This document shows positions 129-13,943 of a stretch of 14,090 nucleotides of DNA, piece after piece. The stretch is taken from positions 1 through 14,090 of the forward strand of contig JAYZQJ010000188.1 in assembly GCA_036149055.1 (NCBI GenBank), given 5' to 3'. Below the pieces are notes generated by a model, which saw only the letters and a list, made by a program, of their open reading frames with translations, was not told the origin of the DNA and searched no databases. Every line of letters starts with the position of its first letter. Position 1 is the stretch's first letter. A program made the translations under genes and the position numbers. Source of the stretch: Myxococcota bacterium. Its GTDB lineage: Bacteria; Myxococcota_A; Polyangia; Polyangiales; Sandaracinaceae.

Positions 129-2459
129 TCAGCGACACGCGAAGCCGTAGCGGGAGCCCGGGTCGGTCTCCAGCGCCTGATCCTCGGTCGGCGGGCTCGC
201 CTCCGCGCCGGTGAAGAACCACGCGCCGCCCGAGGGCGTCTCGGGCGCGCCGATCACGACGTCGGTGAGGCCGTCGCCGTCCCAGTCGTGACCGCCGACG
301 CAGCGGCCGAGCTCGTCGCCGCCGTCGACCACCGGCGGCGCGGTGGGGGTCAACGGGACGCCCGCGGTGTCGAACGCGGTGAAGAGCCACACCCCGCCCT
401 CGTCGCCGTTGCTCGCGTAGCCCGCGATCGCGAAGTCCTCGTCGCCGTCTCCGTTCACGTCGCGGAGCGGGGCGATCGCCGAGCCGAAGCGGGCCGCGCC
501 GGCGGGCGTGGGGAGGGTCATGAAGTCGGACGTCGAGAGCCCGTCGAAGCGGCCGAAGAAGAGGTAGGCGACGCCCTCGTCCACGACGCCTCCGTCCCGG
601 CCGATCGCGCCGACGACGAGATCGTCGTAGCGGTCGTCGTTCACGTCGCCGACGCAGGCGAGGGCGAACCCGAGCTTGTCCTGGTCCATGCCGCCCGGGG
701 TGGTGAGAGTGAGATCGGGCCGGGTCGCGAGATCCCAGCCGCCGTGCACGTCGGGGCCGCCGAAGTAGACGTGGACCGCGCCCCGTCCGTCGCCGCCACC
801 GGGGGCCAGGTAGGCGCCGACCGCGAGGTCCATGTAGCTGTCGCCGTTGAAGTCGCCTCCGGCGATGGCCGCGCCGAACGCCTGCCCCACGGCCGCCGCG
901 CCGAGCGGGTCGACGAGCTCCGCCTTGTCGCTGCTCGAGACGCCGGTCGCGCTGCCCCAGTAGACCCACACCCGCCCCTCGCGCGGCGCGGGCGTCCCCT
1001 CCTCGGGGAGCACGCCCGGCTCACCGACGACGAGATCGTCGAAGCCGTCTCCGTCGAAGTCGCCGGGCACCGCGAGCGCCTCGCCGAACCACGCGTCGTC
1101 CAGCGGGTTGCCGCTCCGGAGCTCGTCCGGCGCGCCGAGGAAGGAGATGCCGGGCGACGCGTCGTCGGTCCAGACGAACACCGACCCGCGATGCACGTCT
1201 CCGCCGGTGTGGCGCTGGAGCGGCGCGCCGCCGATGAGCTCGGCCCGGCCGTCGCCGTTCAGATCGCCCACCGCGAGCGCCCGACCGAGGTTGCCGTTCA
1301 CCAGGCCGGGGTTGGTCCGCACGTCCTCGGCCGCGAAGCGGAGGCCGGCCGCCGCGTCGCCCGGATAGACGTGCAGCGCGCCGAAGCCGCTGTTGAAGCC
1401 GGGCGCGCCGACGACCGCGTCGGCGAGCGTGTCCCCGTCGATGTCGCCCGGGACGACGCCGACGTCGAAGTGGAGGATCTCCGAGGTCTCGGGCGGCGAG
1501 CAGCCCGCGTCGTTGCAGGCGCGGATGCGCCAGTACCAGCGCCCCGCCGAGAGGGCCTGGGCGGGCGGCGTGATGACGAACAGCTCGGGCGCCGCCTGGG
1601 TGACGACGACCTCCACCGGGTCCAGGTCGCTGTCCCGCGACAGCTCGATCTCGAAGCGGGTCGCCTCGTCGGCGCCGCTGTCCCAGACGAACTTGGGGCG
1701 GGTCGCGTGAGGGCGCGGCAGGCCGGGGTCGGGCGCGTCCACCCGGCCGGTGTCGTAGCCGCGGATGGGGCGCACCGGGCGCGGCCCGAAGGGCGGCGGG
1801 GTGCCGACGCCGCCGTCGGCGGGCACCGAGGCGTCGGGCAGGGTCGGTCGCTCCACGCAGCCGCCCTCGGGGATGCAGACCTGGGTCTCGCCGCAGGCCC
1901 CCGCGACCGGCGCCGCGAAGCACGCCCCCTGAACGCAGCGGGCCTCCGCGCAGGACGCGGCCGGCGCGTCACAGGCGGTGGCGTCGGCGCACACCGCGTC
2001 ACCGCAGCGCTCGGGCGTCTCGGGCGAGCACCGCGGGTCGACGCACTGTCCGTCGACGCAGGACTCCTCGTCGCCGCACGTCACCCGCGCGCAGGCCCGG
2101 GTCACCAGGACGGTCACCCCGTAGTTACCGGTGAAGCTGATCGAGACGGCGTTCCGTCCGACCACCTGCCCGTCGGCGCCGTAGAGGGTGACCGAGACCC
2201 TCCGATCGCCGGGCGAGGCGCCGAGGAAGTCGGCCACCCGCACGCCCTCGAGCGCGTCGGCGTCACCGAGCACCCCGGACATCCGGGAGTCGACCAGGGC
2301 GCCGTTCCCGTCTTCGATCCGGGCCTCGGCGACGACGAATTCGACGCCGGGCATGTAGTCGGTGCGCAGGTCGACGGCGAGGATGACGCCGTCTTCGGTG
2401 CACGAGCAGAGCGAGAAGGCGAAGCAGAGGGCGAGCGCGGCGCGCCGGGGATCGGGCAC
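129..2459 (-). CDS. FG-GAP (integrin-alpha-like) beta-propeller lipoprotein with N-terminal Cys-rich region and Fn3/Ig-like middle domain, 776 aa
   Basis: GTG start preceded by GGAGG. Lipoprotein-type signal (RR, hydrophobic stretch, SLCSC). Seven D-x-[DN]-[GD]-D-x-x-x-[DE] FG-GAP motifs: GDIDGDTLAD, GDLNGDGRAE, GDFDGDGFDD, GDFNGDSYMD, GDVNDDRYDD, RDVNGDGDED, HDWDGDGLTD, with FG/LG-x-A and G-x-V-x-V/L strands. Fn3-like segment PKFVW...FEIELS...GRWYWRIRACN. Confidence 0.9.
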   Translation of the reverse strand: MPDPRRAALALCFAFSLCSCTEDGVILAVDLRTDYMPGVEFVVAEARIEDGNGALVDSRMSGVLGDADALEGVRVADFLGASPGDRRVSVTLYGADGQVVGRNAVSISFTGNYGVTVLVTRACARVTCGDEESCVDGQCVDPRCSPETPERCGDAVCADATACDAPAASCAEARCVQGACFAAPVAGACGETQVCIPEGGCVERPTLPDASVPADGGVGTPPPFGPRPVRPIRGYDTGRVDAPDPGLPRPHATRPKFVWDSGADEATRFEIELSRDSDLDPVEVVVTQAAPELFVITPPAQALSAGRWYWRIRACNDAGCSPPETSEILHFDVGVVPGDIDGDTLADAVVGAPGFNSGFGALHVYPGDAAAGLRFAAEDVRTNPGLVNGNLGRALAVGDLNGDGRAELIGGAPLQRHTGGDVHRGSVFVWTDDASPGISFLGAPDELRSGNPLDDAWFGEALAVPGDFDGDGFDDLVVGEPGVLPEEGTPAPREGRVWVYWGSATGVSSSDKAELVDPLGAAAVGQAFGAAIAGGDFNGDSYMDLAVGAYLAPGGGDGRGAVHVYFGGPDVHGGWDLATRPDLTLTTPGGMDQDKLGFALACVGDVNDDRYDDLVVGAIGRDGGVVDEGVAYLFFGRFDGLSTSDFMTLPTPAGAARFGSAIAPLRDVNGDGDEDFAIAGYASNGDEGGVWLFTAFDTAGVPLTPTAPPVVDGGDELGRCVGGHDWDGDGLTDVVIGAPETPSGGAWFFTGAEASPPTEDQALETDPGSRYGFACR

Positions 2460-2565
2460 GAAACCTCCGGGGGTCGAGGGTCGCCCTCGCGGGGGATCGA
2501 GGGCCGGTTGGTGTACGGGGAGTGCACGGTCTTCCTCCCCCGTTTCGTGGATTTTTTCGTTCGGC

Positions 2566-4535
<1,970 letters not shown>

Positions 4536-4553
4536 GCGGCGCGGAGGATAACA
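4536..4553 (-). promoter_or_regulatory. Putative extended -10 element (TGnTATCCT) for a leaderless or short-leader oppD transcript
   Basis: Minus strand reads TG-T-TATCCT-CCGCGCCGC-ATG with no Shine-Dalgarno. It closely resembles the element upstream of 8440. Confidence 0.4.
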
Positions 4554-4565
4554 GCTGCCGTCCGC

Positions 4566-5389
4566 TCAATCACAGGAGACCGCGTGGACCTCGAGCCCGG
4601 GGCGGGTCTCCTGCCGGAAGGCGCCGGCCGGGATCTCCACGTTCAGGTCGATGCGCGAGAAGCGCACGAGGGTGTCGATGTCCCGACTGGGATCCTCGAA
4701 GCGCACCCGGAACGGGAGCACGACGCCGCGACCGGCCTCGTCGTCCGGGTCCGCGATGAAGGCGTAGTCGTCATAGGTGACCCGCCACTCGGTCTGCCCG
4801 TCCGCCGAGAACACCTCGCTCCGCTTCAGCCGCATGCGCTGGGACTCGGGCGGCGCGGTGAGGTCCTGGTCGCGCACCTCGAGCACGAGCTCCTGGCGGC
4901 GGCCGTCCTCGGCGAGGAGCTCCACGTGGTAGCTGCCGCCCTCGCACCGGATGCGGCGCTCCTCGGCCTCGATGCGCGGGGTCTCCCCGAGCAGGAGCCG
5001 GGTCACCTCGGTCGAGCTGAAGCGCAGGCCGAGCAGGCGCTCGATGTTCGCCGGGCAGGTCGGGCCCTCGTAGAAGCGGTTCTCGCGCAGATCCATCAGC
5101 GCGAAGCGGTCGCCGTCGCTGGTGAGCACCGCGGCCGGGCCGAACTGGGTCATCGCGTCGAAGCGCACCCGGTCGGGGCGGGCGATGAACATCAGCACGG
5201 TGCCGCGGATGCGCCCCTCGGGGTCGCGTCGATCCACGCGGGCCTCCGCGCGCAGCACCCGGGCGGGCCGGCGCATGTCGCGGTAGGACTCGAGCGCGCT
5301 CGTCGCGTCGCTGAAGGGGTAGGTCGGGCAGGGTCGGCCCGGGCAGCCGCTCATCAGGGTGAGCGCCACCGCGCAGAGCGTGATCCGCG

Positions 5390-5393
<4 letters not shown>
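4566..5393 (-). CDS. Lipoprotein, LolA/LolB/DUF4292-like beta-rich fold (tentative), 275 aa
   Basis: The real gene is the last 275 aa of ORF 4566..7457. ATG 5393 overlaps the yitJ stop (ATGA). Signal MTRITLCAVALTLMSGC with lipobox MSGC. The motif RPDRVRFDAMTQFG..AVLTSDGDRFALMDLRENRFY resembles LolA-superfamily proteins. Family call is by eye. Confidence 0.7.
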
Positions 5394-7276
<1,883 letters not shown>

Positions 7277-7303
7277 CGCGGACGCGGTGTGCCTCGAAAA
7301 CCC

Positions 7304-8368
7304 CTATATGTCGAGGGCCGCGCGGTTGGGGCACGGCATGGTCTCCATGCAGTTCCCCGGCGCTCCGAGCTGCACGTTGCAGGCCTCCCGCTCCCCCGCG
7401 ATGCAGTCGGCGCAGTCGCCGCCGTCGGCCTCGACGCACGCGCCGCACTGGATCCACGCCCGGAGCGCGCAGAGCCGCTGCTCGCTGAGCAGGTTGCCGC
7501 TGAGCGGCATGCGCGATCCGCAGACGTCGTCCGAGCTCGCCGCCGCGACCTTCAGGTACATCAGCGACATCTCCGGCATCGACGCCGTCAGGAGCGGGAC
7601 CTCACCCACGCACTGCATGCCCTCGGGGGCGGCGTCGAGGATGCGCGCGTGCACCTCGGCGTCGCTGCCGCTCAGGTCGAGCGCCCCGGCCGGATCGCTG
7701 TTGTCGTGACAGCGGCCGAGCGCGCAGCTCGGCTGGATGATCTGGGCGTTGATCGCCGGCCAGGTCGGGTCGACGCAGCTCCGCTCGCAGGCGGCGATGG
7801 TGAAACCGGTCACGTTGGGCTCACGATCGACCCGCTCCTGGCTGCGCTCGATCACCGGCGTGCGCGAGGCGAGCCAGTTGCGGAGCAGCTCGCGGCCCTC
7901 CTCCGTGTCGAGGCCGGGCAGCGGCGTGGCGGTCACCCCGTCGTCGGCGATGCGCTCGAAGCGCTCGTTGACGCTCTCGGCGTACATGCGCCCCGCCTCC
8001 CCGGTCGGCGGCATCTCGCCCGACTGCACCTGCTCCCAGATGTGGCCGCGCATCGAGAGCACCCGCTGCTGGTTGCGGAGGAGCCGGTCGGCCGCCTCGA
8101 GCTCCACCTCGTTGCTGGTGGAGGCGAGCCGGACGTCGAAGTCGAGGCCGAGCGGCGCGCCGAAGCGCTCCTGCGCGTCGATGTCCTCGCTGTGGCAGAA
8201 GCCGCCCGCACCGCAGCTCTGGATCATCAGCGCCTGCCCGGCGAACGCCGGCACGCCGTCGGGGGTGTAGACGATCTCCAGCGCGGCCGCCTCGTCGGCC
8301 GGCCCCAGGTCGGGGCCGCACGAAGCGAGCAGCAGGATCGAGATCGTCGCACCACAGAGTCGCCGCAT
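7304..8368 (-). CDS. Lipoprotein, putative di-haem c-type cytochrome with atypical CX5CH and CX4CH motifs, 354 aa
   Basis: GGAGG before ATG. Lipobox LASC. CGAGGFCH (8192-8215) is followed by GEMPP...LRNWL. CALGRCH (7706-7726) is followed by LDL...SLMYLKV...GSRMPL...LRAWIQCGA, a planctomycete-type cytochrome c pattern. Cys-rich tail. Confidence 0.65.
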   Translation of the reverse strand: MRRLCGATISILLLASCGPDLGPADEAAALEIVYTPDGVPAFAGQALMIQSCGAGGFCHSEDIDAQERFGAPLGLDFDVRLASTSNEVELEAADRLLRNQQRVLSMRGHIWEQVQSGEMPPTGEAGRMYAESVNERFERIADDGVTATPLPGLDTEEGRELLRNWLASRTPVIERSQERVDREPNVTGFTIAACERSCVDPTWPAINAQIIQPSCALGRCHDNSDPAGALDLSGSDAEVHARILDAAPEGMQCVGEVPLLTASMPEMSLMYLKVAAASSDDVCGSRMPLSGNLLSEQRLCALRAWIQCGACVEADGGDCADCIAGEREACNVQLGAPGNCMETMPCPNRAALDI

Positions 8369-8426
8369 CGGACCTCCAGGCCGGCGAAAGACGCCGACGG
8401 GCTCGAAGCATACCCGATGCGCGCGC

Positions 8427-8439
8427 TATCTTCCGCGCG
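8427..8439 (+). promoter_or_regulatory. Putative -10 element (TATCTT) 7 nt upstream of ATG; candidate leaderless promoter
   Basis: TATCTT-CCGCGCG-ATG; TAnnnT hexamer, no SD. Confidence 0.45.
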
Positions 8440-8610
8440 ATGCGGACGGTTTGGCTGCTCTTCGCCCTCGCGCTCTTCGGGTGCGAGGCCGAGATCCCCG
8501 AGGGCGTGTTCGCGTGCAGCGAGGACGCGGACTGCCCGCCCGAGCTCGTCTGCCGCACGAACGTCAGCCGCTGCTTCCGCACCCGCGCGCCGTCGGACGC
8601 GGGCGGCTGA
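8440..8610 (+). CDS. Small Cys-rich lipoprotein, 56 aa (not in the ORF track)
   Basis: MRTVWLLFALALFGCEAEIPEGVFACSEDADCPPELVCRTNVSRCFRTRAPSDAGG*. Basic N-terminus, hydrophobic h-region, lipobox LFGC, four further Cys, nearly all third positions G/C. Fills the gap between two minus-strand genes. Confidence 0.8.
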   Translation: MRTVWLLFALALFGCEAEIPEGVFACSEDADCPPELVCRTNVSRCFRTRAPSDAGG

Positions 8611-10227
8611 TCAGGGCACGCAGGTGGCGCGGGCCATCGCGCAGGTCGAGATGCCGGGGCAGCCCGAGTTGAAGTAGACGATCTCCGCCGGGTCCGAGAG
8701 CACCCCGTCGACCCGCACCCGGATGTCCCAGCGCCCGTAGATGCCCGCGGTGTCGCACGGGAGGGCGGCGGTCGGCGGGAACGGATCGACGGCGGCGCCG
8801 CTCGCGTCGAGCACCCGCTCCTCGGCGTCGTAGGGCGCCGCGCCGCAGCCCACCCGCTCGTTCACCTGGGTGCTCGTGGCGCGCGGTCGGCCGTTCACCC
8901 GGGTCACGAGCGCGGGCGGGCTCGAGTGCGGCACGCCGAGGTCCACGCAGCCCGGGCCGCTCGCGGTGTCGATCCGGATCGTCGGGTTCGGCGCGCAGCT
9001 CGACGACGCGTAACAATACTGCGACTCGGTGCACGCCCGGCAGGGAGAGCAGAACGACCGGGCGGCGACGCACGTGGCGACCGCCGGGCAGCCCGAGTTG
9101 TAGTAGACGGTCTCGACCGTGTTGCTGCGGCGCCCGTCGACGGTCACGTAGGCTTGCCAGCGCCCGTAGATCCCGAAGTCGCAGTCGGTCACCGCGCCAG
9201 ACTCGAAGGTGTCCTCCCAGCGCCCGTCGGGGCCGAGCGGGAAGCTCGCCGGGTCGTCTCGCGGCGGATCGCCGCAGCTCACCTGCTGGTTGGTCTGCAC
9301 GGCGGTGCGGTTCGGGCGCCCCTCGATGATCCGGCGGAACGTGAAGTCGGGCGCGGTGTGGGCCACGCCGAGATCGATGCAGTCGGGCGCGCCCGAGGTC
9401 TGGAGCATGAACGTCGGCTCGGGGTGGCAGGCGCCGCGGTCGCAGTACTCCCCCGCGCCGCAGCGGGGCGAGGTCTGGCAGCTCCCGGCGACGCACGCGT
9501 GCGTCGTGCAGGGATCGCCGTCGTCGCAGTCGGAGGGCGAGCACGGCGTGGGCCCGGCGTCGGGCGGCGGCGTGGAGGCGTCCGGCTCCGGCGGCTCGGG
9601 ACGTGGCTGACAGCCCAGGGTCGCCTCGCAGAACTCGTCCGCCGCGCAGAGGGCGTCGTCGGGGACGGCGAGGCAGCGCTCGCCGACGCACTGCCCGGCC
9701 GCGCACGCCGAGGTCCCCGCGCACTCGGCGTCCGAGCCGCACTCCCGCTCCACGCAGCCCTCCGGGTCCTCGAGGCAGCTCGGCGGCACGCAGCGCCCGA
9801 GGCTGCACGCGGTGGCGTCGGCCGGGTCGCTCGCGGTCGGGCACGACAGGGACGCGCACGCGGCGCTGACCCCGACGAGCACGCTCCGGTCGTCCTCGAT
9901 CGCCACCCGGGTCACGCCGTCGTCCACCGCGCCGCCGCGCGCGTCGAGCAGGGTGACCCGCACGTCGTAGACCCCGGTCGCGACGCCCTCGAAGTCCGCG
10001 AGGCTGCGCCCCGAGAGGAGCGCGAGGTCGAGCCCCGGGTCGGGCGAGAAGGTGACGTCGCGGGCGTGAGCGACGGCCCCGTCCGAGACCCGGACCAGCT
10101 CCACCCGCGCGAGCACGAACTGGAAGCCGTGTCGGTAGCTCGTCTGGAGGCGCGTGCTGACGAAGTGCCCGTCCGCGCACCCCGCGGCCAGGGCCAGGAG
10201 CAGGAGCGGTGCGATCGCGCGACGCAT
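8611..10227 (-). CDS. Cys-rich modular lipoprotein with two tandem ~125-aa C-terminal domains, 538 aa
   Basis: Signal MRRAIAPLLLLALAAGC (lipobox AAGC), beta-rich N-domain, 14-Cys region, Pro/DAG linker, CDDGDPCTTHAC motif, then a duplicated domain with shared C.DLGV.H, GRP, GIYGRW, VDG and NSGCP motifs. Confidence 0.85.
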   Translation of the reverse strand: MRRAIAPLLLLALAAGCADGHFVSTRLQTSYRHGFQFVLARVELVRVSDGAVAHARDVTFSPDPGLDLALLSGRSLADFEGVATGVYDVRVTLLDARGGAVDDGVTRVAIEDDRSVLVGVSAACASLSCPTASDPADATACSLGRCVPPSCLEDPEGCVERECGSDAECAGTSACAAGQCVGERCLAVPDDALCAADEFCEATLGCQPRPEPPEPDASTPPPDAGPTPCSPSDCDDGDPCTTHACVAGSCQTSPRCGAGEYCDRGACHPEPTFMLQTSGAPDCIDLGVAHTAPDFTFRRIIEGRPNRTAVQTNQQVSCGDPPRDDPASFPLGPDGRWEDTFESGAVTDCDFGIYGRWQAYVTVDGRRSNTVETVYYNSGCPAVATCVAARSFCSPCRACTESQYCYASSSCAPNPTIRIDTASGPGCVDLGVPHSSPPALVTRVNGRPRATSTQVNERVGCGAAPYDAEERVLDASGAAVDPFPPTAALPCDTAGIYGRWDIRVRVDGVLSDPAEIVYFNSGCPGISTCAMARATCVP

Positions 10228-10283: not shown

Positions 10284-12635
10284 GTGGGGAACGGCTCGCG
10301 CCTGGTCCTGGTTGCGTGGCTGGTCGCGTGGCTCGCGATGTCCAGCGCGGCGCTCGCGCAGGAGGAGCCGCCGACTCCGCCGAGGCTCCTCGAGGCGCCG
10401 CCGCTGGAGCTGCCCGAGGGCGCCGCGCCGATCGAGGGTGGCGCGGCGGTCGAGCTGCTCCTGACGATCGACGCGACCGGCGCGGTGAGCGACGCGGCGA
10501 TCACCACGCCGGTCCGACCCGACGTCGACGCCCTCGCGCTCGAGGCCGCCCGGCGCATGCGCTTCGAGCCGGCGACGCGAGGCGGCGAGCCCATCCCGGC
10601 GCGGATCCGCTTCCGCTACGTCGTCACCGCGCCGACCCCGCCGCCGCTCGAGGCGCCGCCGCCGCTCGAGCCGCCGCCCGATCCCCTGTTCGAGGCGCCC
10701 GACGAGGGCCCGGAGCTCGGGGTGACCGCGGTGGTCGAGCGCGACGAAGAGGGCGCGGCGAGCCGCATCACGCTCCGCGGCGAGGAGCTGACCACCGTGC
10801 CCGGCACCTTCGGCGAGCCGCTCCGCGCGGTCGGCAGCCTCCCCGGCGTCGCCCGCTCGCCGTTCGGCCTGGGCTTCTTCCTGGTGCGGGGCTCGGACTT
10901 CCAGAACACGGGGTTCCTGGTCGACGGCTTCCCGGTGCCGCTGATGTACCACGTGGGCGCGGGCCCCGCGATCCTCAGCAACCGCTTCGTCGACCGCATG
11001 GACTTCTACGCGGGCAACTACCCCGTGCGCTACGGGCGCTACGGCGGCGGCCTGATCGCGCTGAGCAGCGACATCCCGGACGTCGACTCGCCGCTCGGCG
11101 AGGCCTCGCTGGACGCGGCCCGGGCGAGCGTGCTGGCGGTGGTCCCGACCGACGACGGCCGCGGCGCGGTCGCGGCGGCGTTCCGGCGGAGCTACTTCGA
11201 GGCGATCCTGCCGCTCGTGCAGCCCGGGCTGGAGCTGTCCTTCATGGACTACCAGCTCCTCGGTGAGTACGCGCCCGACGACCGGCTCGAGGTCTCGTTC
11301 TTCTTCTTCGGCGCCAACGACAACCTCGACCAGAGCGGTCAGCTGGGCGACGGAGGGTTCATCAGCGAGGGCAGCCGCTCGCGCGTCTCCTTCGACCTCC
11401 AGCGCCTCATCGCGAGCGTGCGAATCCGACCCGACGCGGACACCCGGGTGACCCTCAGCGGCATGGTCGGGCGGGACGCGAGCGGCTTCGACGCGGCGCA
11501 GCCGGGGCTGGGCCTGTTGACCTTCGAGCTCGAGGCCTTCTTCGCCGGCGTGCGCCTCGACGCCGAGCTGACGATGACCGATCAGCTCCGCGCGCGAGCC
11601 GGCGTCGACGTCAACACGCTGAGCGCCCGGATCCTCGGCACCGCGCCGGTCCCGCCCGGTCTCGGCGAGCAGCCGCGCCCCCTCCCGACGCTGACCACGA
11701 GCGACGCCTCGGTGGGCGTGGTCGAGGCCTTCGCGGCGGCGTACTGGGAGCAGGTCTTCGACTTCCGCCCGCTGGAGATCAGCGCCGGGCTGCGGGTTGA
11801 CGTGATGCGCTACGGCGACGTGCTCGAGCCGATCTTCGACCCCCGCGTGGTCAGCCGCCTCGCGCTCGCCGAGTGGATCACCGTCAAGCTCGCGTCCGGG
11901 CTCTTCGTGCAGCAGCCGAGCCCGTTCACCATCTTCCGGGTGGGCGGCAACCCGTCCATCCCGCCGGAGCGCGCCTGGCAGTCGTCGGGCGGGCTGGAGC
12001 TGTCGCTCCCCGTGGGCGTGCAGGCGTTCCTCACCGGCTTCTACAACCGTCAGTGGAACATCGCGCGCGCCACCGACGAGATCGTGCCCACCGAGGACGG
12101 CCTGCGGCGGGTCTTCTTCCGCGCCGACCAGGAGGGCCACTCCTACGGCCTCGAGGTCATGCTCCGCATGCGGCACGAGGGCTTCTACGGCTGGGTCACC
12201 TACACCCTCTCGCGCGCCGAGCGCTGGCACCCGGGGCAGGCGCCGGAGGTCTTCGGCTTCGACCAGACCCACGTGCTCAACCTCGTCGCGAGCTACGGCT
12301 TCGACGGCTGGCGCTTCGGCGGCCGCTTCCAGCTCGCCACCGGCCGGCCGGCCCGGGACGCGGAGGGCGCGCGCTTCGACGCGGACACCGGCGGCTTCGT
12401 CGCGATCTTCGGCCCGCGGGGCCCGCGCGTGCCCTACAGCCACCAGCTCGACGTGCGCATCGACCGCGAGTTCGATCTCGGCGCCGTGAAGGGCTCGGTC
12501 TACCTCGACGTCATCAACGTCTACTTCTCCGAGCTGCCCGAGGGCCGGCTCTTCCAGTACGACTACGCGCGCAGCGGCCTGTTGCGCGGGCTGCCGATCA
12601 TCCCGTCGATCGGCGTGCGGGGGACCCTGCAGTGA
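10284..12635 (+). CDS. TonB-dependent receptor with N-terminal TonB C-terminal-like domain (myxobacterial type), 783 aa
   Basis: GTG start after GGAGG (short spacing). Signal peptide ending ALA|Q. TonB_C-like segment VELLLTIDATGAVSD...DALALEAARRMRFEPA.RGGEPI. Pro-rich linker. Plug ELTTVPGTFGEPLRAVGSLPGV...VRGS...VDGFPVP. Barrel strands AGLRVD, EPIFDPR, SYGLEV, GWVTYTLSRA, FDQTH, QLDVRID, YLDVINVY. Confidence 0.88.
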   Translation: MGNGSRLVLVAWLVAWLAMSSAALAQEEPPTPPRLLEAPPLELPEGAAPIEGGAAVELLLTIDATGAVSDAAITTPVRPDVDALALEAARRMRFEPATRGGEPIPARIRFRYVVTAPTPPPLEAPPPLEPPPDPLFEAPDEGPELGVTAVVERDEEGAASRITLRGEELTTVPGTFGEPLRAVGSLPGVARSPFGLGFFLVRGSDFQNTGFLVDGFPVPLMYHVGAGPAILSNRFVDRMDFYAGNYPVRYGRYGGGLIALSSDIPDVDSPLGEASLDAARASVLAVVPTDDGRGAVAAAFRRSYFEAILPLVQPGLELSFMDYQLLGEYAPDDRLEVSFFFFGANDNLDQSGQLGDGGFISEGSRSRVSFDLQRLIASVRIRPDADTRVTLSGMVGRDASGFDAAQPGLGLLTFELEAFFAGVRLDAELTMTDQLRARAGVDVNTLSARILGTAPVPPGLGEQPRPLPTLTTSDASVGVVEAFAAAYWEQVFDFRPLEISAGLRVDVMRYGDVLEPIFDPRVVSRLALAEWITVKLASGLFVQQPSPFTIFRVGGNPSIPPERAWQSSGGLELSLPVGVQAFLTGFYNRQWNIARATDEIVPTEDGLRRVFFRADQEGHSYGLEVMLRMRHEGFYGWVTYTLSRAERWHPGQAPEVFGFDQTHVLNLVASYGFDGWRFGGRFQLATGRPARDAEGARFDADTGGFVAIFGPRGPRVPYSHQLDVRIDREFDLGAVKGSVYLDVINVYFSELPEGRLFQYDYARSGLLRGLPIIPSIGVRGTLQ

Positions 12636-13516
12636 AGCGCGTCGCCTTGATGCTGCTCCTGACCGTCGGCTGCGAGGGCCCGGACTTCGAGCCGGCCTCC
12701 ATCGTGCGCGCTCCGCGGGTGATCGCGGTGGTCGCGGCGCCGGTCGAGGCCACCGCCGGGGAGGCGGTCACGTTCACGCCCTTCGTCGCCTCGCCCGACG
12801 CGGCCGCGCTGACCCTCGAGTGGGAGGTCGACCTGGGCGTGCCCGCGCTCGCCGCCGCCGCCGGTCAGTCCCTCGAGGGCGAGCCCCGCGCGATCGCGCT
12901 GGAGACGGACGGCGACGTCGCCCGCCTCCCCGCCGAAGAGACCCGCGCCGCGCTCGACGCCTTGCTCGCGCGCGTCGGCGACGCGCCCCCCGGCACGCCG
13001 GAGCACGTGGTCCGCTACGTCTACGAGACGGTCGGTCTGACCTTGATCGCGCGCTTCACCCTCCGCGCCGACGGCGAGGTCGCGATGGAGGGCTTCAAGC
13101 GCTTCTCCCTCGTCGCCGCGCCGACGTCGCTCACCAACCCGCCGCCCCCGCGCTTCCGCGTCGGCGACGCCTGGGTCAGCGCCCGCGGCCCCGACCCCTT
13201 CGACTGCGCGCCCGAAGCCGAGCCCCCGCGTGTGCCCGCCGGCGAAGCGGTGGTCCTCGCCCCCGAGCCGGACGAGCCCTGGCTCGAGACCTTTCCCGCG
13301 CTCGACCTCGAGGGCGACGTGATCACCGGCGTCGAAGACGCCTACTACTCGTGGTTCTCGGTCGCCGGCGAATTCAGCTTCGAGACCACCCGCCCCCCCG
13401 GCCGCACCACCGAGTGGACCGCCCCCGACACCCCCGGCACCTACCCCCTCTGGCTCGTCGTCCGCGACGGCCACCTCGGCGCCTCCGCTTGCCGAACCCT
13501 CGTCTCGGTCGAGTGA
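12632..13516 (+). CDS. TBDR-associated lipoprotein with C-terminal PKD/Ig-like motif, 294 aa
   Basis: GTG overlaps the TBDR stop (GTGA). MKRVALMLLLTVGC has lipobox TVGC. RVIAVVAAP.EA..GE.V near the N-terminus and YSWF...GEF...WTAP..PG...LWLVVRDG..G near the C-terminus. It is the C-terminal part of ORF 11873..13516. Confidence 0.82.
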   Translation: MKRVALMLLLTVGCEGPDFEPASIVRAPRVIAVVAAPVEATAGEAVTFTPFVASPDAAALTLEWEVDLGVPALAAAAGQSLEGEPRAIALETDGDVARLPAEETRAALDALLARVGDAPPGTPEHVVRYVYETVGLTLIARFTLRADGEVAMEGFKRFSLVAAPTSLTNPPPPRFRVGDAWVSARGPDPFDCAPEAEPPRVPAGEAVVLAPEPDEPWLETFPALDLEGDVITGVEDAYYSWFSVAGEFSFETTRPPGRTTEWTAPDTPGTYPLWLVVRDGHLGASACRTLVSVE

Positions 13517-13557: not shown

Positions 13558-13943
13558 CGTGAGCTGCGAGTCCTCCGAATTTACTCTCGCAAAGACGCAA
13601 AGCCGCAAAGGGGCATGCGGGCAGCGGGATGGCACCTGGCCATCTCCTCCCCACCACCTCCTCCCTGACACCACCTCCTCGCCAGCACCTCCGTGAGCTG
13701 CGAGTCCTCCGAAATTACTCACGCAGAGACGCAGAGACGCAGAGACGCAGAGACGCAGAGACGCAGAGACGCAGAGACGCAGAGACGCAGAGGCGCAGAG
13801 GGGCATGCGGGCAGCGGAATGACACCTCGCCACCACCTCCCCGCCATCCCCTGCGTGAGCTACGAGTCCTCCGAAGTTACTCACGCAAAGACGCAAAGCC
13901 GCAAAGGGGCATGCGGGCGTCGGGACGGCATCTCGCCACCACC
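13558..13943. repeat. Three tandem copies of a composite extragenic element (starting 13558, 13692, 13854)
   Basis: Each copy reads CGTGAGCTRCGAGTCCTCCGAANTTACTC + (NCGCARAG)n + GGGCATGCGGGC + ..GGRAYGRCAYCT.GCCA + C-rich tail, with n = 3, 10 and 3. Confidence 0.9.
13721..13800. repeat. 8-bp microsatellite (ACGCAGAG)x9 + GCGCAGAG
   Basis: Counted directly: 9 perfect units at 13721-13792 and one variant at 13793-13800. Confidence 0.95.

Follow-up and report, generated by a model that had tools for sequence, protein, structure and literature searches.

Eukaryotic-like kinases run into the hundreds in myxobacteria, with 353 in Minicystis rosea and 317 in Sorangium So ce56 according to the part of the source available (PMC8436480), and the activators of most of them are an open question. 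Among the described systems closest to the one considered here, TagQ/TagR-PpkA belongs to the H1 type VI secretion system (H1-T6SS) of Pseudomonas aeruginosa, where a membrane lipoprotein and a periplasmic partner are proposed, in the accessible portion of the paper, to dimerise an inner-membrane Ser/Thr kinase with a disordered linker (PMC13713981). In Actinobacteria, GlnH-GlnX-PknG appears in the available text as a three-gene unit of a lipoprotein sensor, a membrane adaptor and a Ser/Thr kinase (PMC6069109), and the kin-recognition receptor TraA of Myxococcus xanthus is, in the consulted part of its source, a polymorphic myxobacterial surface receptor (PMC13184517). Here, a stretch of 14,090 nucleotides from a Myxococcota bacterium of the family Sandaracinaceae (contig JAYZQJ010000188.1 of assembly GCA_036149055.1; hereafter the window) is described, in which two lipoprotein genes, A and B, are members of a large, unnamed myxobacterial lipoprotein family, S1. 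This family co-occurs with a cassette encoding a kinase, an adaptor and a small lipoprotein, so S1 proteins probably serve as interchangeable receptors for a few shared membrane kinases. The source genome has 271 kinases, and S1 names a concrete candidate input layer. The names S1, S2, S3 and T used throughout are labels coined in this analysis.

Both open reading frames, A (129-2459, minus strand, 776 residues) and B (8611-10227, minus strand, 538 residues), match the description given in an earlier interpretation made from the letters alone (the sequence-only reading), which had proposed a constant N-terminal module with unrelated C-terminal payloads. In A, a lipoprotein signal peptide whose last residue, Cys20, is the predicted lipidation site (2400-2459) is followed by a constant seven-stranded beta-sandwich with a pilotin-like predicted fold (residues 21-122; 2094-2399), a 14-Cys stalk (residues 123-201; 1857-2093) and a Pro/acidic D[AG]G linker (1755-1856). 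The first four stalk Cys are common to the sister subfamily S2 and the other ten are S1-specific. The variable payload of A (132-1706) combines an Ig/Fn3-like domain (about residues 252-335) with an FG-GAP beta-propeller; the propeller is firm (E 9e-42), while the Fn3 domain named earlier is reduced to weak Ig-like matches (E 0.006-0.035). B, an orphan member without an adjoining cassette, likewise has a lipoprotein signal peptide ending in Cys17 (10177-10227), a constant beta-sandwich (residues 18-123; 9859-10176; E 1.5e-22 to a profile that includes B itself) and a 14-Cys stalk (residues 124-206; 9610-9858), and continues, on the same strand, through an acidic linker and an 8-Cys spacer with a CDDGDPC unit (9427-9609) into a payload of two Cys-containing repeats of about 125 residues (270-396 and 414-538; 8614-9420), an Ig-like sandwich of an unnamed family.

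The N-regions of A and B align at 34% identity over 222 columns in BLASTP (E 1e-18; A 23-231 against B 19-231), and their Cys spacings are exactly those quoted in the sequence-only reading. With Cys masked, the similarity persisted over the whole N-region (z 9.9) and was lost for the stalk alone (z -0.8, with 827 of 1000 shuffles scoring as high), so that the match between the two stalks rests on Cys spacing; the beta-domain alone aligned with z 9.0, a score reached by none of 1000 shuffles. No convincing alignment joins the tails, as had been claimed (weak z 2.4, 4 of 200 shuffles as high). The D[AG]G linker is indeed present in both proteins, but it is not specific to the pair and occurs generally in lipoproteins of the source genome, being present in 33.6% of the 896 lipoproteins predicted there, compared with 6.9% of the remaining 7052 proteins, and in 14 of the 20 S1 proteins. 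This roughly fivefold preference of acidic D[AG]G repeats for predicted lipoproteins may reflect a sorting, spacer or modification signal. As for the payload of B, no part of the protein matched Pfam or NCBIfam and the payload gave no feature match in the ESM Atlas; its structure resembles MG2/Big-like ESM Atlas models at a TM of about 0.6, and ten other proteins with homologous payloads were found, all ten with an S1 module. The CDDGDPC unit resembles Dicty_CTDC repeats, a model that two paralogues match weakly. The closest relative of B has 69-74% identity to it, and Sandaracinaceae proteins nearly identical to A (the cluster of P0107) carry the annotation hypothetical protein. Contigs from RNA libraries span the whole window fairly evenly, and for that reason are no evidence of transcription.

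A search profile made from the beta-domain alone retrieved, at convergence, 21 open reading frames in the source genome, namely 20 S1 proteins and one member of the sister group. All 20 carry, in order, a lipobox Cys, a beta-sandwich of about 100 residues and a 14-Cys stalk, with small variations on the Cys pattern 4-x-4-4-7-4-5-5/6-4-4-8-5-5; the general layout then continues with an acidic linker and a variable tip. Beyond this genome, the profile matched 1865 representatives at 50% identity, 1119 of them at E<=1e-10. Among the best 150 relatives, a Cys stands at the domain start in 149, at least 14 Cys are present in 128 of the 133 that are long enough, and the beta-domain is single-copy in every one. 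Strong conservation over 120 rows extends to non-Cys positions such as T33 (96%), D34 (99%), R74 (96%) and R121 (93%). The family was found in 17 of 18 genomes of the same family (1-28 matches each), in 18 of 60 of the same order (1-43 each) and in 7 of 200 of the phylum. Two departures from the pattern were seen: one S1 protein (L098:1282-4518) lacks the first four stalk Cys and keeps the remainder, and in the two same-family genomes without S3 the RTD motif, conserved in S1, reads VSN or VSD (L222, L224, L226 and L228). Scans of the constant module gave no match at the curated cut-offs of Pfam or NCBIfam (the strongest stray match, E 0.0013, came from 2 of the 19 members), so that no named model covers beta-domain or stalk; a PDB sequence search returned only ribosomal S33 at E 0.12, and no pilotin. 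The ESM Atlas gave, as leads only, Myxococcota clusters without a name (cosine 0.84-0.88).

S1 genes often adjoin a cassette of an inner-membrane Ser/Thr kinase, a TPR-PEGA protein with a signal peptide (T, which matches only TPR and PEGA-type models) and S3, a small Cys lipoprotein without payload. The outer part of the cassette kinase is a long low-complexity linker that ends, in many cases, in a short G.DAF[DE]-like motif, and T tails at S3 loci have a common AQLxP-like motif. S3 has conserved Cys, and 48 S3 proteins end no more than 40 residues past the model; neither Pfam nor NCBIfam has a model for it. Homology of S3 to S1 or S2 had been suspected by eye, and profile comparisons gave no support (P<5).

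Co-occurrence of S1 (E<=1e-8) and S3 (E<=1e-3) was analyzed in 60 other genomes of the same order. Both were present in 17 and neither in 41, with S1 alone in one and S3 alone in one (Fisher 8e-13); with the source's own family and the five genomes that seeded the S3 profile left aside, the corresponding counts were 10 both, 0 S1 only, 1 S3 only and 41 neither (7e-10). The single S3-only genome has a weak S1-like gene immediately after S3. Inside the patchy families, the two patterns also agree (2/6, 1/3, 1/6, 2/6 and 2/3). In the 18 genomes with both, source included, there are 201 S1 matches and 33 hand-tallied S3 loci. Within 5.2 kb of 55 S3 loci, T was found at 46, a kinase at 39, S1 at 18 and S2 at none. 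When loci were picked by S3 alone, S1 lay within that distance at 16 of 53, for which p is 2e-12 under an assumed chance rate of 3% and with the loci being related to one another. The arrangements include kinase-T-S3-S1 operons, S1-T-S3 orders, and convergent and divergent pairs, and 8 of the 40 S1 loci with an 8-kb span adjoin T and S3. First tests with short flanks had suggested no link between S1 and T, a result that the 8-kb loci overturned. In the closed 10.3-Mb genome of a same-family relative (G003), the one strong S1 gene lies directly upstream of the sole T and S3. At another locus (L013:2757-8278), an operon holds an FHA/sigma-54-like activator (labelled by eye), S1, kinase, T and S3, possibly a complete circuit with its output. 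Taken together, S1 is very probably a functional partner of the kinase-T-S3 cassette.

Gene A itself points in the same direction. In four relatives (G001, of the same genus, G008, G004 and G014), the syntenic orthologue of A stands tail-to-tail with a kinase-T-S3 cassette, and in G001 and G008 the genes of the window run through the A orthologue into S3, T and kinase and on into genes found here on a separate contig, C136. From this synteny, the cassette of C136 probably adjoins A at the left end of the window. Both C136 and the window end in a genome-wide repeat, and the assembly is broken between them; the repeat, dispersed at very many contig ends and containing a 72-bp internal repeat, occupies positions 1-135 of the window. 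A, the neighbouring S3 and the tail of the neighbouring T diverge together from G001. Identity is 43% in the beta-domain of A, 60% in its stalk and 25-35% in its tip; 39-42% in the S3 beside A, against 71% in the other two S3 orthologues; and 40% over the last 20 residues of T, against 73-93% in its body. The kinase domain retains 73-97% and the flanking genes 84-95%.

The constant module was modelled with AlphaFold2 from a 120-row alignment, with a high predicted local confidence (pLDDT 95.5) and predicted TM-score (pTM 0.88), as seven strands followed by small Cys-linked hairpins. The closest solved folds to the beta-domain are two pilotins, the Pseudomonas type III secretion system pilotin 2YJL (Z 10.3, root-mean-square deviation 2.3, 94 of 108 residues aligned) and the Vibrio type II secretion system alternative pilotin 5WEC (Z 8.9). 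The search rows span residues 1-104, so that the stalk was barely probed. Next come N-domains of Bacteroidetes type V pilins at Z 7.6-8.3 (Mfa3 8.3, BT2657 8.2, BDI_3522 8.0, Mfa2 7.8), values inside the background range of 7-8 stated for the tool; Foldseek returned nothing at E<=0.001 for the module, with type V pilins heading its list. Pilotins are outer-membrane lipoproteins that bind the C-terminal segment of their partner and in which a small domain follows the lipid anchor immediately, as in S1. They differ in sequence, with 11% (2YJL) and 7% (5WEC) identity to the S1 beta-domain, and in that S1 has no YscW-type Pfam match and adds a Cys stalk and a payload. No secretin gene was noticed among the recurring S1 neighbours, as grouped by similarity clustering. 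The S1 beta-domain is thus predicted to be pilotin-like in fold and gave no pilotin match by sequence.

The sister subfamily offers a precedent. S2 comprises 17 lipoproteins in the source genome, with a related beta-domain (HHalign P 88.7, E 2.6e-6 over 94 columns), only the first four stalk Cys and variable tails; it occurs in 43 of the 60 same-order genomes, and S1 forms one side of a branch supported 100/100. Unlike S1, S2 sits directly behind its own T, one receptor with one adaptor. The upstream neighbour of S2 is T in 7 of 17 cases in the source genome (six on the same strand), compared with a background of 1.2% among 7948 called genes; 14 of the 17 have a kinase no more than three genes away (background 17%). 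In 29 other genomes, each represented by its best match, T was directly upstream of S2 in 22, always with a single-helix tail. Two classes of T can in fact be distinguished, one ending in two C-terminal helices and a hairpin, the other in one hydrophobic helix and a tail of about 15-20 residues. Of 33 single-helix T genes, 14 have a beta-domain lipoprotein at most two genes away, as against 0 of 46 two-helix ones (p 6.6e-7). The two-helix class (46 genes in the source genome, G000), whose two-strand hairpin has a terminal Phe, precedes lipoproteins with other short N-motifs (CSL-type and EG.F.C-type), never those with the beta-domain. Kinases adjoining T have a low-complexity linker and then a short terminal motif. 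Only 7% of 29 T tails have two or more K/R after the helix, compared with 67% of 15 controls (p 4e-6); the tails break the positive-inside rule and are therefore unlikely to be cytoplasmic. The lack of basic residues would fit a helix located outside the inner membrane, with a tail that a pilotin-like domain might reach. No beta-barrel was found in T, which ends in the helix and its short tail. An earlier idea was that covariation with the beta-domain is confined to the T tail; it weakened once the TPR part was included, and its supporting subtype patterns had been chosen post hoc.

The tips of S1 proteins are diverse. A Pfam scan of 95 of the best 150 relatives (long ones, up to a residue limit, near-copies of the source genome's own genes excluded) gave matches in 47, every one in the tail. 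LamG was found nine times, RCC1 and disintegrin eight times each, Dicty_CTDC four times, C-type lectin three times, and FGE-sulfatase and FG-GAP twice each; single cases were Kelch, beta-helix, TSP1, SLH, PQQ, BNR, Big_13, Stig1, DUF1554, DUF6923 and MopE-only. No named catalytic toxin domain was found among these 95 tails. For tail clustering, 169 candidates gave 134 with a full stalk (and, in the case of the representatives, a tail of at least 100 residues) and, after removal of nine near-duplicates, 125, whose tails fall into 71 clusters. The tree of the module is star-like (12 of 122 branches starred). On it the tails need 39 changes, against 51 when shuffled and a minimum of 12, and are thus more clustered than expected by chance; starred branches force at most two origins for any tail, and close relatives retain their tails. 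Deep shuffling of tips is suggested rather than proven by these patterns. At a locus with three tandem S1 genes (L003:4033-8164), two have near-identical modules and tails only 55% alike, which suggests conversion or recent duplication. With 20 paralogues in the source genome, 1865 representatives and 71 tail clusters among 125 proteins, the reading of a lipoprotein family with constant N-terminus and variable C-terminus is supported: neither a loss of the similarity on masking the whole N-region, nor a set of fixed architectures, nor an already known family was found.

On balance, we infer a split receptor kinase whose receptor subunits are the S1 proteins, interchangeable and with many of them docking on few hubs. 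The constant module would dock on an S3-T pair in the outer membrane, with S3, the T tail or the TPR as the contact; the TPR of T would bind the terminal motif of the kinase; and ligand binding or clustering at the S1 tip would draw kinases together and so activate them. Since the docking part is constant, S1 genes could disperse and multiply while hubs remain few, as the 1-43 S1 genes and 1-4 S3 genes per genome would have it. Of the roles that the sequence-only reading had offered for the constant part, docking is best supported, by cassette linkage and the pilotin-like fold; export is possible, and polymerisation is the least supported. S1 and S3 may accordingly represent a split form, with a payload-less lipoprotein in the cassette and many dispersed payload carriers. 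A bolder version, which we put forward only tentatively, is a combinatorial receptor system in which dozens of separately encoded surface receptors, with binding domains of animal type, plug via one pilotin-like module into a few S3-T-kinase hubs. In it, T would be a helix protein of the outer membrane with its lipoprotein as escort, and the cassette next to A would form a private, fast-exchanged self/non-self receptor-adaptor pair; plant receptor-like proteins that share one kinase offer an analogy.

Several observations weigh against receptors docked on kinase hubs. In the source genome, T is directly before none of the 20 S1 genes, a kinase is near 6 of 20 (not enriched over the 17% background), and 19 of 20, B included, are without S3 within 5.2 kb on the same contig; T is within 1.5 kb at 0 of 30 loci. 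No S3 was found in G015 (88% complete, three full S1 genes) or G011 (93%, one). Four genomes outside the order carry an S1-like beta-domain and no S3, so the domain can exist without the hub; in the three that were read, the beta-domain has neither lipobox Cys nor stalk. (These S1-like domains, at L131, L132 and L133, are on secreted non-lipoproteins.) The p-values are overstated, given that genomes and loci are related. The join between C136 and the window is drawn from relatives, with about 2.6 kb of other DNA and the genome-wide repeat intervening here, and simultaneous replacement of the neighbouring DNA could account for A and S3 having diverged together. The pilotin Z of 10.3 exceeds the next row by only 1.4, and likeness of fold shows no function. 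Over 27 pairs, the TPR of T follows S2 similarity more closely (rho 0.56) than the T tail does (0.35; partial 0.30), and so co-inheritance accounts for much of the S2-T covariation. The basis throughout is sequence and genomics, and interaction, location and kinase activation stay predictions.

Other explanations share part of this evidence. T and S3 could act as a Slam- or pilotin-like device for delivering S1 adhesins to the cell surface, with the module as targeting tag and the kinase only regulating or reporting. The same co-occurrence and linkage of S1 and S3 would follow, few devices for many cargoes fits the copy numbers, and the fold matches to pilotins and type V pilin N-domains agree with it, as do weak TPR_Slam matches in two T proteins (E 0.03-0.05, below the cut-off). 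Yet T, with one helix and a short tail, lacks the C-terminal beta-barrel that is fused to TPR in the Slam/type XI system; a kinase within 5.2 kb at 39 of 55 S3 loci, many with the common end motif, is not needed for export alone; and a private T for each S2 would be costly in a mere exporter. We regard this device as unlikely, and the next alternative as distinctly more so, namely that S1 proteins are stand-alone adhesins on a rigid disulfide-stabilised pedestal, with the kinase-T-S3 linkage a relic of an ancestral operon. That most S1 genes are orphans amid unrelated neighbours, that G015 and G011 have no detected S3 and that the beta-domain also occurs on non-lipoproteins would suit it, but a relic leaves unexplained the concordant presence and absence in patchy families, the several adjacent arrangements (operonic, convergent and divergent) and the strong conservation of T33, D34, R74 and R121.

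Two further proposals place the module in other settings, and both seem very improbable. S1 might stay beneath the outer membrane, on its inner face, and sense envelope damage or incoming proteins, in an immunity-like or TagQ/TagR-like manner; pilotin folds face the periplasm in known cases. FGE-sulfatase, the domain of TagR in the accessible text (PMC13713981), is found at 2 of 95 tips, while the majority of named tips are binding domains of extracellular type (LamG 9, RCC1 8, disintegrin 8 and C-type lectin 3 of 95) and tips sit on long acidic linkers. Slightly less probable again is a polymerising fibre, in which the beta-domain would be a subunit resembling type V pilins and the paralogues would form the tips of an S3-anchored lipoprotein pilus. 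Type V pilins are made as lipoprotein precursors and have variable tip subunits, and the matches to Mfa3, BT2657, BDI_3522 and Mfa2, which also top the Foldseek list, were counted in favour of it; the likeness is limited to the N-terminal sandwich, at background Z values of about 8, and S1 differs in having no second pilin domain, no pilin operon and, its C-termini being unrelated, no conserved C-terminal donor strand. Nor was a payload-less major subunit with an S1 module found, and none of the 150 relatives has more than one copy of the domain.

The window holds other genes as well. Directly downstream of B, a 354-residue lipoprotein-like protein (7304-8368, minus strand) has two atypical Cys-x(4-5)-Cys-His motifs and is possibly haem-binding; it has no Pfam or NCBIfam match. 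Divergent from B over 56 bp is a TonB-dependent receptor with an N-terminal TonB_C domain (10284-13516, plus strand), which is followed by an unnamed lipoprotein gene. Between A and B (2566-7276, minus strand) lie a homocysteine methyltransferase-MTHFR fusion, a DUF4292 protein and an oppD/oppF-type ATPase pair, with no permease genes within the window and with the gene order kept in G001. Positions 13721-13800 hold an 8-bp unit repeated ten times in tandem in a non-coding-looking region.

A published description of the S1 family or of the cassette was not found in a search that left supplements and most subscription journals outside; PEGA domains or kinase expansion are mentioned, in the available parts of PMC7159879 and PMC8436480, only in other contexts. 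The proposed input layer has a receptor family whose constant module is defined and a hub that is predicted, and G003 provides a minimal natural test case. If correct, it would represent convergence of many receptors on few kinases across the Gram-negative envelope, and the constant module would be a natural plug for displaying chosen domains.

Compared with the described systems, as far as the accessible parts of their sources go, the conserved linkage of lipoprotein, adaptor and Ser/Thr kinase genes seen here fits signalling of the TagQR-PpkA and GlnHX-PknG type. TraA carries an N-terminal variable domain and a C-terminal anchor and has TraB as its partner. Its likeness to S1 is polymorphism, gene A being hypervariable between close relatives, whereas TraA is single-copy and has no kinase cassette. 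TagQ/TagR-PpkA likewise has a lipoprotein and a partner acting on a linker-bearing inner-membrane Ser/Thr kinase, but with one fixed sensor, one kinase and T6SS output, in contrast to up to 43 variable receptors and 1-4 hubs here; the adaptor here is a TPR-PEGA protein with a terminal helix, and the kinases end in a short motif, not in a folded periplasmic domain. GlnH-GlnX-PknG, also a gene unit of lipoprotein, adaptor and Ser/Thr kinase, differs in its single solute-binding protein, in the TPR domain of PknG itself and in having no variable receptor family. T showed no homology to TagR or GlnX. S1 is a real family that, by analogy, would work like TagQ/TagR-PpkA and GlnH-GlnX-PknG, with no adaptor family in common and with the convergence of many receptors on few hubs added.

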